From Patescibacteria group bacterium (GTDB taxonomy: Bacteria; Patescibacteriota; Minisyncoccia; UBA6257; Colwellbacteraceae), in contig JAMCQZ010000006.1 of NCBI GenBank assembly GCA_023380305.1, forward strand, positions 1 to 58,281: a DNA stretch of 58,281 bases, read 5' to 3'. Below the pieces are notes generated by a model, which worked only from the letters and a program-made list of their open reading frames with translations, did no database searches and was not told the DNA's origin. Within the stretch, counting starts at the first letter, position 1, and each line of letters starts with the position of its first letter. Position numbers and translations under genes: made by a program. Shown here one piece after another: positions 3,213-38,478 of this stretch.

Positions 3213-4496
3213 ATGCCCGAAATCAACTACGTTAAAACCATTTTCCCGAATGGTCTTAGATATATATTCGTGCCCGAGCCGCAGAGTCTCGCAACCACGG
3301 TTTTAGTTCTCGTCGCCGCCGGCTCGGAATATGAGACCAAAGACAAGAGCGGCATTTCCCATTTTTTGGAGCATCTCTGCTTCAAGGGAACAACCAAGCG
3401 GCCCAGAAGCGGGGCCATTGCCGCCGAGCTTGACGCCTTGGGGGCCGAATACAACGCCTTCACCGCGAACGAGATGACAGGCTATTACGCCAAGGCCGCC
3501 AACAAGAATTTCGAAAAGATTTTGGAGATCGTGGCCGATCTTTACATGAATCCGATCATCGATCAGGCGGAGATGGACAGGGAAAGGGGAGTGATTCTCG
3601 AAGAGATAAACATGTACGAGGACCTGCCGATGGAGAAGGTCAAGGAGAACTTCGCGAAGCTTCTTTATGGAGACCAGCCGGCCGGATGGTCCGTCGCCGG
3701 AAACAAGGAGGTGATTCGGCGCCTGAACAGGGAAGACATCGTCGCTTACCGGACCAGACATTATCTGCCACCGAAAACGACGGTGATCGTTTGCGGCGGC
3801 ATTCCGGAGAATCCCGAAAAAACCGTTTGGAAATATTTTGAGGCGATGCCGAGGGGTGAAACCGTTAAAAAGGAGAAAACCATTGATAGCCAAACCGAGC
3901 CGGAGTTGAATCTTCAGACAAAATCAACCGACCAACTGCACCTTGTCTTGGGGAGCCGGGGCATCAACGCTTTTGATCCTCGGAGGTACGCCTTGATGGT
4001 GCTCGCCGACATTTTGGGAGGCAGCATGTCTTCGAGGATGTTCGTAAAAATTCGGGACGAAATGGGCGCTGCCTATTACGTCCGGAGCGGAGTGGACGAA
4101 TCCTCGGACCATGGTTCGATCTTTGTCGCCGCTGGCATCGACAAAACGAAAATGATCGATGTCTGTCGCGTCATTCTCGCCGAGTTTGAGGACTTGAAGA
4201 ATAATCCGGTTTCCGAGGCGGAGCTCAACAAGGCCAAAGAGCATCTGTCCGGCAACCTGATTTTGCAGCTTGAAACGTCAGATGACATCGCCGTCTTCTT
4301 CGGCGCCGAAGAGATCGTGTCCGGCAAGGTTTTAACCCCGGCCGAAGTGCTTCGGAAGATCAAAGAAGTTACACCCGAAGACATCCGATCCCTGGCGGGG
4401 GAGATTTTTAAGAAGAGCCGGTTGAACTTGGCCGCCATCGGCCCGGATTTCGAAGAAAAGGCATTGCGGGATCTTCTCCAATCCGTTAAGATTTAA
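3213..4496 (+). CDS. M16 family (pitrilysin-like) zinc peptidase
   Basis: Inverted zinc motif HFLEH, FKGT, NAFT, and C-terminal SSRMFVKIRDEMGAAYYV. Confidence 0.92.
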   Translation: MPEINYVKTIFPNGLRYIFVPEPQSLATTVLVLVAAGSEYETKDKSGISHFLEHLCFKGTTKRPRSGAIAAELDALGAEYNAFTANEMTGYYAKAANKNFEKILEIVADLYMNPIIDQAEMDRERGVILEEINMYEDLPMEKVKENFAKLLYGDQPAGWSVAGNKEVIRRLNREDIVAYRTRHYLPPKTTVIVCGGIPENPEKTVWKYFEAMPRGETVKKEKTIDSQTEPELNLQTKSTDQLHLVLGSRGINAFDPRRYALMVLADILGGSMSSRMFVKIRDEMGAAYYVRSGVDESSDHGSIFVAAGIDKTKMIDVCRVILAEFEDLKNNPVSEAELNKAKEHLSGNLILQLETSDDIAVFFGAEEIVSGKVLTPAEVLRKIKEVTPEDIRSLAGEIFKKSRLNLAAIGPDFEEKALRDLLQSVKI

Positions 4497-4499
4497 CCA

Positions 4500-5522
4500 A
4501 TGGAAAAGCGGGAGTTGGAAATCTCTTGGGGCACCCTCTGGAGGGTGGTGGCGATGATCGCCATCGTCGCGTTCCTGATCGCGGCCCACGAAGCCCTGCT
4601 CGTCTTGCTTTTCGCGCTCATCATTTCCTCGGCGCTCGACGGTCTAGTGTCTTGGCTCGAGGGCCGCAAGGTTCCCCGCCTTATTGGAACGGTTCTAATT
4701 TTCCTCGCGATGTCGGTTGTTTTCGGCTTTATTCTTTATGAAGTCGTTCCCTTGGTTTCTTTGGAGACCGCCAAATTGATCGAAACCTATCAGGGTCTGG
4801 GCGGCCTTTTCGGGGAAAACGGTGCCATTTTGGATAAACTAAACCAGACGTTGCTCAGCGGTAATTTCGGCAGCCAGATGGTTGATGCCATTTTGAAGGG
4901 AGCGAGTCCATTCATCTCCGCGGTCGGAGGATTGCTCGGCGGAGTCATATTTCTCGCGACCGTCTTTATCACCTCGTTTTATCTGACCCTGAGCCGCGAC
5001 GGGGTGGAAAGGCTTTTGCGGGCTGTGTTTCCAACGCAGGCCGAAGAGTACATTATCAAGATTTATATCCGGGCCAAAAAAAGAATCGGCCGTTGGATGC
5101 AGGCGCAAATGCTTTTGAGCTTTGTCATCGGCCTGGTGGTTTTCGTGGGGCTTTGGCTCGCCGGCATCGATTACAGTCTTTTGATCGGGGTGCTCGCTGG
5201 ACTTTTCGAAATCGTGCCGGTAGTCGGTCCGATTTTCGCCGGAGCTATCGGCGTGGCCGTCGCTTTTTCGAATTCCTTGTCTCTCGCCGTGGTTACCCTC
5301 ATCTTTTTCGTGATCGTTCAACAGCTTGAAAACAACATTTTGGTGCCGATTTTGATGCGCAAGGCCGTAAATATTCATCCGGTGATCGTTATCATCGCTT
5401 TGATGGCCGGCTTCGAAGTCGCCGGCGTCATCGGAACGGTTCTCGCCATTCCTACCGCCGTTGTCATCCAGGAAGTCGTCGAGAATAGATTGCGGAAGAA
5501 GGCGGAAGACGCCGCCTGTTAA
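4500..5522 (+). CDS. AI-2E family (PerM-like) transporter
   Basis: Multiple transmembrane helices; family motifs FEIVPVVGP, QQLENNILVP, IHPVIVIIAL, G..G..LAIP. Confidence 0.9.
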   Translation: MEKRELEISWGTLWRVVAMIAIVAFLIAAHEALLVLLFALIISSALDGLVSWLEGRKVPRLIGTVLIFLAMSVVFGFILYEVVPLVSLETAKLIETYQGLGGLFGENGAILDKLNQTLLSGNFGSQMVDAILKGASPFISAVGGLLGGVIFLATVFITSFYLTLSRDGVERLLRAVFPTQAEEYIIKIYIRAKKRIGRWMQAQMLLSFVIGLVVFVGLWLAGIDYSLLIGVLAGLFEIVPVVGPIFAGAIGVAVAFSNSLSLAVVTLIFFVIVQQLENNILVPILMRKAVNIHPVIVIIALMAGFEVAGVIGTVLAIPTAVVIQEVVENRLRKKAEDAAC

Positions 5523-35861: not shown

Positions 35862-37751
35862 TCAAACTTCCCGGTGTTTTAACCGGATGCGGATGATTCT
35901 GAGGGAATTGGTAATCGGTAAGAAATCGGTGACAAAATTAAAAACCGCAGCGCCGATCGGGCCGAGGACTCCGAGCAATACGAGGAAAATACCCACAGTG
36001 TTCGTGATGCCCCAGATCCAAAAGTCCTGGTTGACGATCTTAAGGGCGATTTTACTCAAATCCATCAGCTTCGGAATGACGCGCAGATTATCGGACATAA
36101 GCGCGATGTCCGCCGCCTCGATCGCCGCGTCCGAACCGATAGCTCCCATGGCGATGCTCAGATCCGCCGCCGCCAGAGCGGCCGCGTCGTTCACTCCGTC
36201 TCCGATCATGGCTACCTGACCGTATTCCTTTTTAAGCTCGGCGATGATCGCCACTTTGTCTTCGGGCTTCAGATCGGCTTTAAAAATATCGATGCCGACG
36301 TCTTTGGCGACTCGGGCGGCGACTTTTTCATTATCGCCGGTAATCATTACCCAGCGTTTGACGCCGAATTCTTTGGTGTGTTTGACGACGATCTGGGCGA
36401 ACGGCCGGAGTTGGTCTTCAAAAAAAATGATGCCGGCGAATTTTTCGTTTACGCCGAGGCTGGTGATGCTTGCGCCGCTGTCTTTGGCGATGGCCGCTAT
36501 TTTCTTGAGCTCGGCGGTGATTCGCACGCCTTGTTTTTCCAGGTAGTCCATTTTTCCGGCGCATATTTTTTGACGGCGGTATTCGACGCAGATGCCTTCG
36601 CCCGGAATTTCTTCGAATTTTTCCGGAAGTTCGACGGCGATGTTCTTGGATTTCAAATATTGGAGGACGGCCTTGGCTGTCGGATGCTTGGAATAAGTCT
36701 CCGCCGTTCCGAGCATTTTTAAGAATTTTTCTTCGCTCATTTTAATCGGCTCGACAGCCGTAACCTGCGGTTTACCTCTCGTCAGGGTTCCGGTTTTGTC
36801 GGTGATGATAGTTTGGATGCGGGAGATTGTCTCCAAAAATACCGCCCCTTTGACGATGGCGCCTTCGTGGGCCGCTCTCGTTATCGCTCCGGTGAACGTC
36901 AAGGGAATAGACACGGCGATATCGTCGGCGCAGACGACGAGGAGTAGCGAAAGCACCAGGTCGATGTTTTTAGTCGCGATGAAGATGGCCGTCGAACCGA
37001 TAAGCGCGAGGCCGATATACCAGGCGACGAATTTGTCGGCCACGCTTTCTTCGGCGGTCTTCATGCGGCTGGCCGCGTCCACCAGCCTTACGATTTTCGC
37101 GAAAGCGGTTTCCTCGCCGAGCTTTTCGGCCTTAACGACGAGCGAGCCCGATTCGTTGACTGTGCCGCTGAAGACTCGGTCGCCGACCTTTTTTAAGACG
37201 GGCTCGCTTTCGCCGGTTAATATCGCTTGGTTGATCGCTCCTTGTCCGGAGACGACCAAGCCGTCGATCGGCAACTGGTCTCCGGATTCGATAACGACAA
37301 GATCGCCGGCTTTGATATTTTCGACCAGGACGATCTTGACCGTATGATCGACTTGGATTTTGGCTTTGATGGGTTTGTTTTTCAAAAGCGCGTGGATAAT
37401 GTGCCGCGCGCGATTGGCGGTGTATCTTTCGAAAATCCTCGCCGAAGCGATCATGAGGTTGATAAAAGCCGCCGAATACCAAGCCCGGGCGATAAGGCTA
37501 AAAATAAGAGCGATGCTCGCGAGAAGATCGATGGTAAGACGGCGTTTATAGAGCGCCTTCGCGGCATTGGCGACAACCGGCAAAGTGCCGACGATCGACA
37601 GGAAAATTAGAAAATAGGCACTCGACTTGGCGGGCAAAAGGTGGAAGATGTCTGCGCTAAGTCCGATGACAAGAAAAACAACTAAAACAATATCAAGATA
37701 TATGAAACGATCGTTAAGCCGGTCGACGCCTGATTTTTTGAAATCGGGCAT
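35862..37751 (-). CDS. P1B-type (heavy-metal family) ATPase with a non-canonical CADD motif
   Basis: TGES, DKTGT, HP, GDGVND motifs; no N-terminal metal-binding domain. Confidence 0.92.
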   Translation of the reverse strand: MPDFKKSGVDRLNDRFIYLDIVLVVFLVIGLSADIFHLLPAKSSAYFLIFLSIVGTLPVVANAAKALYKRRLTIDLLASIALIFSLIARAWYSAAFINLMIASARIFERYTANRARHIIHALLKNKPIKAKIQVDHTVKIVLVENIKAGDLVVIESGDQLPIDGLVVSGQGAINQAILTGESEPVLKKVGDRVFSGTVNESGSLVVKAEKLGEETAFAKIVRLVDAASRMKTAEESVADKFVAWYIGLALIGSTAIFIATKNIDLVLSLLLVVCADDIAVSIPLTFTGAITRAAHEGAIVKGAVFLETISRIQTIITDKTGTLTRGKPQVTAVEPIKMSEEKFLKMLGTAETYSKHPTAKAVLQYLKSKNIAVELPEKFEEIPGEGICVEYRRQKICAGKMDYLEKQGVRITAELKKIAAIAKDSGASITSLGVNEKFAGIIFFEDQLRPFAQIVVKHTKEFGVKRWVMITGDNEKVAARVAKDVGIDIFKADLKPEDKVAIIAELKKEYGQVAMIGDGVNDAAALAAADLSIAMGAIGSDAAIEAADIALMSDNLRVIPKLMDLSKIALKIVNQDFWIWGITNTVGIFLVLLGVLGPIGAAVFNFVTDFLPITNSLRIIRIRLKHREV

Positions 37752-37765
37752 CGTTGTTATTTTAG

Positions 37766-37955
37766 CACGTATTTGAAGGAGTGGCAGGGGATCTCGCTGC
37801 TCGCCAGTACGGGGTTATTATAAGCGCGGAGTCTGTCTGAAAATATCCGAGCAGAATTCTTTGAGATCGGTAGGCGGAATTTCCTCTTACTTCATTTTCT
37901 GCCGTACCCTCGCTTTGCCTGCTCGACTAAAACTTATGAGCGAAGGCAGGAACCG
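37766..37955 (-). ncRNA. Candidate structured RNA or 5' leader upstream of the ATPase, family unassigned
   Basis: Nested complementary blocks: GATCTC/GAGATC, CTGCTCG/CGAGCAG and GGCAG/CTGCC, plus a second hairpin at about 37908-37950. No known family matched by eye. Confidence 0.35.
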
Positions 37956-38046
37956 GGGCGGAAAGGATAATTTCAAATTTTTCTTTGGCGGAAAATTATT
38001 TTTACAATCACAACTAATGTTTTCACAACTGATATAATTTTTTGTA

Positions 38047-38393: not shown

Positions 38394-38478
38394 CGGAGAG
38401 GCAGGGATTCGAACCCTGGATACCTTGCGGTATATTCGCTTTCCAAGCGAACGCACTAGGCCACTATGCGACCTCTCC
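38394..38478 (-). tRNA. tRNA-Ser(GGA)
   Basis: Minus strand GGAGAGG...TTCGC-ttGGAaa-GCGAA, long variable arm, GTTCGAATC, CCTCTCCG; CCA not encoded. Confidence 0.95.

Follow-up and report, generated by a model that had tools for sequence, protein, structure and literature searches.

The 58,281-nucleotide window analyzed here, a stretch of DNA from a Patescibacteria genome, encodes a complete and intact P-type ATPase with P1B architecture (P0001), whose canonical transmembrane ligand positions, as read from alignments, carry oxygen ligands in place of sulfur and imidazole ligands, with a single cysteine retained in M4. Classification of P1B pumps and prediction of their cargo rest on signature residues in M4, M5 and M6, and the residues of P0001 at these sites are listed in Table 1 along with its catalytic motifs. 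The protein appears to represent a distinct P1B clade that is, as far as named records go, restricted to Patescibacteria. We consider it a roughly even call that P0001 is a working P-type ATPase of this clade that serves as an accessory exporter of a harder divalent cation, with Fe2+ or Mn2+ as the first choice.

Table 1. Location of the CADD-type ATPase gene, its sequence motifs and a putative promoter within the window.
Feature	Coordinates	Strand	Basis and conservation
CADD-type P1B ATPase gene (P0001)	35862..37751	-	
M4 C274-A275-D276-D277, replaces CPC-A	36921..36932	-	translation; under CPC/SPC/TPCP in alignments; invariant (n=34)
P283, downstream M4 Pro ('..ATP' of CPCALGLATP)	36903..36905	-	invariant; aligned with ATP/STP Pro in all P1B rows
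M5 T583-N584 (N584 = 36000-36002)	36000..36005	-	position of CopA 'YN' / ZntA K693; N584 invariant
M6 N605-F-V-T608-D609	35925..35939	-	alignments and translation; N605, F606, T608, D609, F610 and P612 invariant
DKTGT phosphorylation motif (D318)	36786..36800	-	translation; invariant
TGES, A-domain dephosphorylation motif	37206..37217	-	translation; invariant
H356-P357, N-domain 'HP' signature of P1B pumps	36681..36686	-	H356 invariant, P357 nearly so
GDGVND, P-domain hinge motif	36186..36203	-	translation; invariant
Promoter-like site CTGCCA, 17-nt spacer, TG-n-TAAAAT	37759..37787	-	consensus scan; putative function

The gene lies on the minus strand, which the first-pass annotation had left unstated, and its ATG-initiated open reading frame encodes 629 residues with no internal stops. 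E1-E2_ATPase and Hydrolase are its only Pfam matches; Pfam detects no N-terminal metal-binding domain, in agreement with the first-pass annotation, and ~16 residues precede the first transmembrane helix. Cation_ATPase_N and Cation_ATPase_C are likewise absent by Pfam, and neither a C-terminal extension nor a hemerythrin domain is found in the translation or by Pfam. P0001 scores above the cut-offs of the P1B model TIGR01525 (472.6 bits, cut-off 346.25) and of the P-type ATPase superfamily model TIGR01494 (233 bits, cut-off 62.3), under that of TIGR01511, which served as a test for P1B-1 (335.6 bits, cut-off 397), and far under those of TIGR01116 and TIGR01522, which served as tests for P2A pumps. 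Its AF2 model contains 8 transmembrane helices, and the top Foldseek matches of this model are the P1B structures 4bbj, 4umw, 7r0g and 7qbz. The superfamily hallmarks (TGES, DKTGT, GDGVND and a HAD-type P domain) are all there and invariant, and P0001 retains the P1B chassis in full: the eight helices (MA, MB, M1-M6), the three domains A, P and N, and the complete set of catalytic motifs. Small and without regulatory domains, the pump would offer a handy minimal model for structural work.

The first-pass annotation had aligned CADD with CPC at the usual distance from DKTGT, and the HMMER and MAFFT columns agree with this placement. D276 lies 42 residues before D318, a distance equal to that of the second cysteine of CPC, and HMMER alignments position C-A-D beneath the C-P-C of solved CopA structures (7r0g and 3j08) and beneath the S-P-C of sCoaT (7qbz). 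In a MAFFT alignment of 52 sequences, the E. coli ZntA residues C392, C394, K693 and D714 share columns with C274, D276, N584 and N605, respectively, and the column of ZntA E202 is occupied by S93. The Met/Ser/Ser columns of CopA M6 correspond to N605, T608 and D609; the N605 column contains D714 in ZntA, methionine in CopA and histidine in sCoaT, while the D609 column contains serine in CopA and aspartate in P1B-5 enzymes. The asparagine in M5 and the N-F-V-T-D sequence in M6 noted earlier are likewise found in the translation, and of the seven side chains conserved at the site, six donate oxygen only. The M4 proline column holds an alanine in P0001, which does not carry the proline of CPx- and xPC-type motifs. 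This proline is usually described as the breaker of TM4 (PMC10654040), yet in the AF2 model the M4 helix is broken exactly at residues 274-275 though the proline is missing, and M6 is kinked at residue 609. The CSC-type (P1B-7) protein L017 also lacks the M4 proline, so this residue is not universal in P1B pumps.

The possibility that the motif is a one-off in a decaying gene, raised when it was first noticed, is at odds with both the intact reading frame and the homologs. CADD occurs in 119 of the best 120 homologs (46-84% identity) and AADD in the remaining one; when 16 CADD-clade genome loci are included, two exceptions to C274 are seen (AADD and SAED). A set of 34 sequences (45-84% identity) with a mean column identity of 57% shows no variation at C274, A275, D276, D277, N584, N605, T608 or D609, and a CADD, CADE or CIDE motif is found in ~35-40 clusters at 50% identity among 1.84 billion representatives. 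Conservation of the CADD motif is far above chance.

A collection of homologs and a P1B tree had been proposed in the first-pass annotation, and in our maximum-likelihood tree the CADD clade is monophyletic (100/100) and falls in none of the characterized clades sampled. With KdpB, MgtA and P2 pumps as outgroups, P0001 falls inside P1B and the CADD clade lies outside the CPC (P1B-1/-2), CPH (P1B-3), SPC (P1B-4), TPCP (P1B-5) and CSC (P1B-7) groups, the last being represented by L017, which is placed away from it. Its sister is P1B-5 (TPCP; Ni/Fe), a group that in our tree took in TPCP pumps from rhizobia that carry a hemerythrin domain. This relation is weakly supported (74/96.5, i.e. 74% bootstrap), and the two are separate 100/100 clades on long stems (0.56 and 0.75), with CADD not nested in P1B-5. 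The SCA group (P1B-6; FezB) is set apart from CADD by its M4 motif, the tree covering P1B-1 to P1B-5 and P1B-7; no SCA proteins occur among the best 150 profile hits. The earlier suspicion that the protein belongs to a subgroup that cannot be placed among those described has therefore held up. Its signature, CADD combined with Asn in M5 and Asn-Thr-Asp in M6, appears to lie outside every P1B signature described in the papers from which the motif classes are taken (PMC4932525 and PMC7558416), and a search of the searchable literature returned no description of a CADD-type P1B clade. All taxonomically named members of the clade are Patescibacteria MAGs, and 8 of 401 sampled Patescibacteria genomes (~2%) score >580 bits. 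Genomes at 410-480 bits were considered as carriers of divergent family members and rejected, as their hits are TPCP (P1B-5) and CPG pumps.

Annotation pipelines name the CADD clade 'Cd2+/Zn2+-exporting' despite its signature outside the described ones. An ordinary Zn2+/Cd2+/Co2+ exporter, in which one cysteine and carboxylates replace the two cysteines and the aspartate of ZntA, is suggested by this name, which JGI gives to several homologs as 'Cd2+/Zn2+-exporting ATPase', by a score of 397 bits against the cadmium family model TIGR01512 (cut-off 313.5), by the identity of the top solved relative by sequence, the Zn/Cd/Co pump sCoaT (7qbz; E 1.6e-83), and by a host genome in which neither a CDF exporter nor a ZntA-type pump was found; moreover, a mixed Cys/Asp site can bind Zn2+. 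We nevertheless regard a Cd/Zn cargo as improbable, because the odd site is fixed across the whole clade. The features of the Zn2+/Cd2+/Pb2+ group P1B-2 (CPC, M5 Lys and M6 Asp-x-Gly) and of the Co2+/Zn2+/Fe2+ group P1B-4 (SPC and M6 HEGxT) are all missing, the CADD clade lies outside both groups in the tree, and scores against the ZntA equivalog models are low (269 against a cut-off of 1240 for NF033775, and 315 against a cut-off of 1005 for a second model). P0001 resembles P1B-2 pumps (ZntA/CadA; 4umv and 4umw) in fold (Foldseek E 1.5e-40), in the match of C274 to C392 and in its automatic name, but it differs at the aligned positions of C394, K693, D714 and E202 and in having no metal-binding domain. 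The P1B-4 pumps (sCoaT, PfeT and CtpD) are similar to it in that they lack a classical metal-binding domain, and they handle harder transition metals; however, their M4 contains SPC and their M6 H-E-G-x-T, as compared to CADD and N-F-V-T-D, and they group with ZntA in the tree, away from the CADD clade. CopA (P1B-1; Cu+) is in a separate clade and contains CPC, YN and MxxSS, whereas P0001 contains CAD, TN and NFVTD.

The ligand set points to a cargo harder than Cu+, Zn2+ or Cd2+. Fe2+ or Mn2+ is our first choice because an almost invariant cysteine is retained, because the nearest clade is the Ni/Fe-type P1B-5 group and because the two share an aspartate in M6. The P1B-5 pump Nia from Sinorhizobium meliloti has been reported to be a Ni2+/Fe2+ pump (PMC4932525). 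P1B-5 enzymes are built on the same 8-helix chassis without an N-terminal metal-binding domain, those in Patescibacteria are of similar size (~610-640 residues), and their M6 is also polar, with the aspartate in the same column (Q-E-x-x-D in P1B-5 and N-F-x-T-D in CADD pumps). They differ in M4, where TPCP aligns with CADD, such that the proline is lost and the central cysteine becomes an aspartate, and in M5, where serine is present instead of asparagine; in addition, the rhizobial P1B-5 pump, like many of its group, has a C-terminal hemerythrin domain that P0001 does not. In the proposed mechanism, a cytoplasmic cation would bind in the E1 state between N584, the M6 residues N605/T608/D609 and the unwound part of M4, which would contribute C274, D276, D277 and backbone carbonyls. 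Cation binding would lead to phosphorylation of D318, the ion would be released outside in the E1P to E2P transition, and TGES would then mediate dephosphorylation. The direction of transport is assumed to be export by analogy with other P1B pumps. The Mn2+ or Fe2+ originally guessed from the oxygen-rich site is in keeping with these ligands and with P1B-5 as a weakly supported sister, although in our judgment the computed evidence does not separate Fe2+/Mn2+ from Ca2+, Zn2+/Co2+ or others. Several observations run against Fe2+/Mn2+: the oxygen-donor ligands and their spacing would suit Ca2+ just as well, bootstrap support for the P1B-5 sister relation is only 74%, and, as described below, the gene is accompanied by no metal-responsive regulator, chaperone or riboswitch and shows no co-occurrence signal with CorA, CDF or P2/P3 pumps.

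A different and less likely reading is that P0001 transports an alkaline-earth ion (Ca2+, perhaps Ca2+/Mn2+ or Mg2+) and that its P1B chassis has come by convergence to resemble 'site II' of the P2A pumps SERCA and SPCA. The SERCA site contains E309, N796, T799 and D800 (PMC6879984); D276 would then take the role of Glu309, and N605, T608 and D609 those of Asn796, Thr799 and Asp800, with M4 carbonyls as further ligands and C274 contributing through its backbone only. The spacing is identical to that of SERCA, with an M4 acid 42 residues before the phosphorylated aspartate and an N-x-x-T-D sequence in M6 (N, T at +3, D at +4, then x-x-P, as also in SPCA/PMR1). The predominance of oxygen donors among the conserved ligands, a host genome in which no Na/Ca exchanger, CorA or MgtE was found, and an MgtA-like pump that directly adjoins the CADD gene in one locus (L010) are also in line with this reading. 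However, Cys274 is almost invariant, and a mere backbone or packing role is rarely so conserved; the host genome already encodes a PMR1-like P2 pump, and P2/P3 pumps are also present in half of the CADD-positive genomes. As the gene occurs in ~2% of Patescibacteria species, it cannot be the housekeeping Ca2+ pump of the phylum. The likeness to P2A pumps concerns how the site may work and not family membership, since P2A pumps have 10 helices rather than 8, with M7-M10 as opposed to the MA/MB of CADD pumps, which also have an HP-type N domain and lack the PEGL proline, and P2 pumps rank far below P1B pumps in both sequence and fold searches. Homology of M5-M6 to P2 pumps was considered and rejected, as an M5-M6 profile finds only P1B pumps, weakly, and no P2 pump among PDB sequences; the resemblance to SERCA is therefore confined to a short motif. 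Should this less likely reading hold, no earlier pump for a non-thiophilic hard cation (Ca2+ or Ca2+/Mn2+) would have been built on a P1B chassis, and the CADD clade would have independently rebuilt the SERCA/SPCA site-II ligands (an acid in M4, and Asn, Thr and Asp in M6) on a minimal 8-helix, ~620-residue scaffold without the M4 proline. If the cargo is a hard cation, a single P-type pump chassis can have its ion selectivity rewired between the soft-metal and the alkaline-earth regime, which would also mean that a pump can do without the M4 proline.

The host genome (544 kb) also encodes CopA (CPC), CopB (CPH) and the PMR1-like pump, which makes the CADD pump a fourth, distinct pump; its presence in 8 of 401 genomes and the three other P-type pumps of the host imply that it is accessory rather than housekeeping. 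Patescibacteria are largely without CDF exporters (9 of 61 genomes have one) and rely on P-type pumps, and inferences about metal homeostasis in this phylum would be corrected if the CADD pump has the harder cargo proposed here. Co-occurrence was not significant for CorA (3/8 CADD-positive versus 143/393 other genomes, p = 1), for CDF exporters (0/8 versus 9/53, p = 0.59) or for the P2/P3 pump C-terminal domain (4/8 versus 40/53, p = 0.20). All-against-all BLAST of the open reading frames around 17 CADD loci identified no metal-responsive regulator or chaperone, and the other neighbors of note were too few to inform on the cargo. The lack of a metal-linked neighbor in these loci is compatible with transport of a monovalent ion (Na+ or H+) or of an organic cation (a polyamine), or with a non-transporting ATPase that keeps a polar pocket. 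Sites lined by Asp, Asn and Thr also serve Na+ in the Na,K-ATPase, and the three membrane carboxylates could hold a polyamine. We consider these readings very unlikely, as nothing positive points to them, the architecture and the closest relatives are those of metal pumps throughout, and coupled transport is favored by a complete ligand set that, like all the catalytic motifs, is strictly invariant.

Upstream of the gene, the -10 element of the putative promoter ends 7 nt before the start codon, so that the predicted mRNA would have little or no leader. A riboswitch or structured leader was considered as a clue to the cargo and rejected, as Rfam searches with E values up to 10 return nothing in 37752-37960 and the region is unconserved. 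The sole upstream stretch kept in the relatives whose proteins are 84%, 76% and 66% identical is the TGcTAAAATAA block. In four CADD loci, representing two independent lineages, a VTT/DedA-domain gene is located upstream.

The CADD pump, a P1B-type ATPase with Cys-Ala-Asp-Asp in helix M4 instead of CPC, is encoded by a single intact open reading frame of 629 codons with an ATG start, and the first-pass annotation described it correctly in every detail that could be checked, the (-) strand alone having been left out. Pfam assigns the protein an E1-E2_ATPase domain and a HAD hydrolase domain, and NCBIfam model TIGR01525 places it in the heavy-metal P1B subfamily (472.6 bits vs a cut-off of 346), with scores far under the cut-offs of both the CopA and ZntA equivalog models. 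An AlphaFold2 model built from a 34-sequence alignment (mean pLDDT 78.8) contains eight membrane helices (MA, MB and M1-M6) and no extra domains. Foldseek ranks the solved P1B structures of CopA (4bbj, 7r0g), ZntA (4umw) and sCoaT (7qbz) highest for this model, with KdpB and P2/P3 pumps far lower. As had been proposed, the protein is without an N-terminal metal-binding domain (reading frame, Pfam and the model), and only ~16 residues precede helix MA.

Coordinates of the pump gene, its motifs and the other features discussed
Feature	Contig or locus	Positions	Strand	Basis
CADD pump gene	C6 (window)	35862-37751	(-)	translation
TGES	C6 (window)	37206-37217	(-)	translation
C274-A275-D276-D277 (M4)	C6 (window)	36921-36932	(-)	translation
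DKTGT (phosphorylated D318)	C6 (window)	36786-36800	(-)	translation
HP	C6 (window)	36681-36686	(-)	translation
GDGVND	C6 (window)	36186-36203	(-)	translation
GC-rich upstream stretch	C6 (window)	37752-37960	(-)
tRNA, long variable arm	C6 (window)	38394-38478	(-)	Rfam, 56.6 bits
Further P-type ATPase gene, host genome G000	C5	10172-11683
Further P-type ATPase gene, host genome G000	C8	55739-57268
Further P-type ATPase gene, host genome G000	C8	44357-46054
VTT/DedA gene	L001	3348-3920
VTT/DedA gene	L002	2610-3182
VTT/DedA gene	L011	3012-3581
VTT/DedA gene	L044	3168-3995
SAED variant of the pump	L011	~3589-5487
MgtA-like P3B ATPase gene	L010	5830-8373

Translation and HMMER alignments to solved pumps bear out the placement of CADD under CPC, as C-A-D aligns with C-P-C of CopA and S-P-C of sCoaT, and the spacing to DKTGT is the usual one, D276 lying 42 residues ahead of D318 like the second cysteine of CPC. 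In a 52-sequence alignment, residues C392, C394, K693, D714 and E202 of E. coli ZntA correspond to C274, D276, N584, N605 and S93; N605, T608 and D609 take the places of Met/Ser/Ser in M6 of CopA; and the P1B-5 motifs T-P-C-P and Q-E-x-x-D correspond to C-A-D-D and N-F-x-T-D. These correspondences mean that a polar residue still occupies each canonical ligand position, while the site chemistry has moved from sulfur and nitrogen to oxygen donors, with one cysteine retained. The M4 proline is usually credited with breaking TM4 (PMC10654040); in the AlphaFold2 model M4 is still broken at residues 274-275 and M6 is kinked at 609, which suggests that loss of the proline need not abolish the ion cavity. 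The catalytic machinery is intact, and the pump would follow a normal Post-Albers cycle: a single cation from the cytoplasm would be bound between the unwound M4, M5 and M6 and then expelled.

The first-pass annotation allowed that the motif might be a one-off, but it recurs widely. Among the best 120 matches in a 5.8-billion-protein collection (46-84% identity), 119 contain CADD and one AADD, and when 1.84 billion representatives (50% identity) were searched with a profile, ~35-40 clusters with CADD, CADE or CIDE emerged, whose scores drop gradually from 850 to ~600 bits; below ~550 bits CPC-type pumps predominate, among which a few further CADD-type clusters are interspersed. Conservation of the polar residues that line up with the canonical ion site is strict: C274, A275, D276, D277, A279, P283 (further down M4), W580, N584, G587, N605, F606, T608, D609, F610, P612 and every catalytic residue are invariant in all 34 aligned sequences (57% mean column identity). 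The CADD pump is a real, conserved P1B variant with an oxygen-rich site. The acidic pair is kept in the rare variants CADE, CIDE and SAED, the last accompanied by N-F-I-G-D. This SAED protein (L011, from MAG DBS2-1.bin105; M6 N-F-I-G-D-F-P-P) carries Cys to Ser, Asp to Glu and Thr to Gly changes, a natural 'mutant' that could inform on ligand roles.

To place the variant, a maximum-likelihood tree of 52 sequences was calculated (LG+C20 PMSF; ultrafast bootstrap/SH-aLRT supports). The ingroup comprised CADD proteins, the host's own CopA and CopB, E. coli ZntA, one CSC pump, actinobacterial and proteobacterial CPC, CPH, CPD and SPC pumps, Patescibacteria TPCP pumps and, as P1B-5 references, two rhizobial TPCP pumps, one of which has the C-terminal hemerythrin domain of P1B-5 architecture (Pfam); KdpB, MgtA and one P2 pump formed the outgroup. 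All CADD proteins group in a single clade (100/100; stem 0.56 substitutions per site) that lies inside no motif-defined subgroup in the tree, in line with the earlier suggestion of a subgroup outside those described; from P1B-6 (SCA) it would be set apart by motif only. P1B-5 forms a separate clade (100/100), the sister of the CADD clade in the best tree; support for this node is moderate (74/96.5; 93 in a quick tree). Full-text literature on the motif itself, on P-type pumps of CPR bacteria and on how P1B pumps are classified, a scope outside which the key 2014 classification falls, contained no description of a CAD/CADD subgroup, and the variant is apparently undescribed so far. Short TPCP/Q-E-x-x-D pumps (611-640 aa) without hemerythrin are common in Patescibacteria (L087-L105; genomes G384, G159, G239, G344, G397 and others) and group 100/100 with the rhizobial P1B-5 pumps; an SPCP relative occurs on Levilactobacillus brevis brewery plasmids (L116). 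Off-consensus M4 or M6 motifs were also seen outside the CADD clade: C-P-D in a CopB-like Geodermatophilus pump (L023), C-P-G with M6 H-E-G-S (L091, G181) and CPC with M6 H-N-V-G-S in Hespellia (L015).

The nearly invariant cysteine, the position of P1B-5 as closest clade and the M6 aspartate common to both clades point to a transition metal of the Fe2+/Mn2+ type as the putative cargo, and Nia, a P1B-5 pump, reportedly transports Ni2+/Fe2+ (PMC4932525). Transport of Ca2+, or Ca2+/Mn2+, would compete with this reading: all but one of the seven conserved side chains are oxygen donors, and the acid at -42 and the N, T (+3) and D (+4) match Glu309, Asn796, Thr799 and Asp800 of the SERCA site (PMC6879984). 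However, the SERCA resemblance is at motif level only, the gene is rare within the phylum, and G000 already has a PMR1-like P2 pump. The annotated Zn/Cd function is least supported, because the signature residues of ZntA (P1B-2) and P1B-4 are all missing.

All 16 CADD-clade loci in a 185,579-species genome collection are MAGs, and those with a named lineage all belong to CPR/Patescibacteria (Paceibacterota and Komeili-, Wildermuth-, Azam- and Saccharibacteria). Matches above 580 bits occur in 8 of 401 sampled Patescibacteria genomes (~2%), the next score tier (410-480 bits) consisting of TPCP and CPG pumps; this patchy occurrence argues for an accessory gene and not a phylum-wide housekeeping pump. 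The G000 assembly (544 kb, 11 contigs, 97% complete) encodes four P-type pumps: CopA (CPC and an HMA domain), CopB (CPH and a His-rich N-terminus), the PMR1-like pump (M4 I-P-E-E-L-P, M6 E-L-F-M-D) and the CADD pump. G000 was found to lack a CDF, a Na/Ca exchanger, MgtE and CorA, leaving its Mg2+ uptake without an assigned carrier. Co-occurrence of the CADD pump with CorA (p = 1), CDF (p = 0.59) or P2/P3 pumps (p = 0.20) gave no signal.

The 200-nt GC-rich stretch in front of the gene matched no Rfam family. Compared with the upstream regions of L110, L112 and L113, it is unconserved in close relatives whose pump proteins are 84%, 76% and 66% identical, except for a TG-n-TAAAAT box that ends 7 nt ahead of the ATG. 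Conservation of this box alone suggests a leaderless-type promoter and a leaderless mRNA and disfavours a riboswitch; the GC-rich stretch may instead belong to the adjoining tRNA/mobile-element region. The tRNA precedes the pump gene by ~640 nt. Across 17 CADD loci, neither a metal regulator nor a chaperone turns up repeatedly; synteny common to close relatives extends to groES, groEL, lemA and a gene for an M48 protease, in convergent orientation to the pump gene. A gene for a VTT/DedA-domain membrane protein lies immediately upstream of the pump on the same strand at four loci, representing two independent lineages. In a Paceibacterota MAG (L010), the pump gene is directly followed on the same strand by one for an 847-aa MgtA-like P3B ATPase, with E. 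coli MgtA as best PDB match (E 4e-54) and N-L-L-S-D-F-P in M6.
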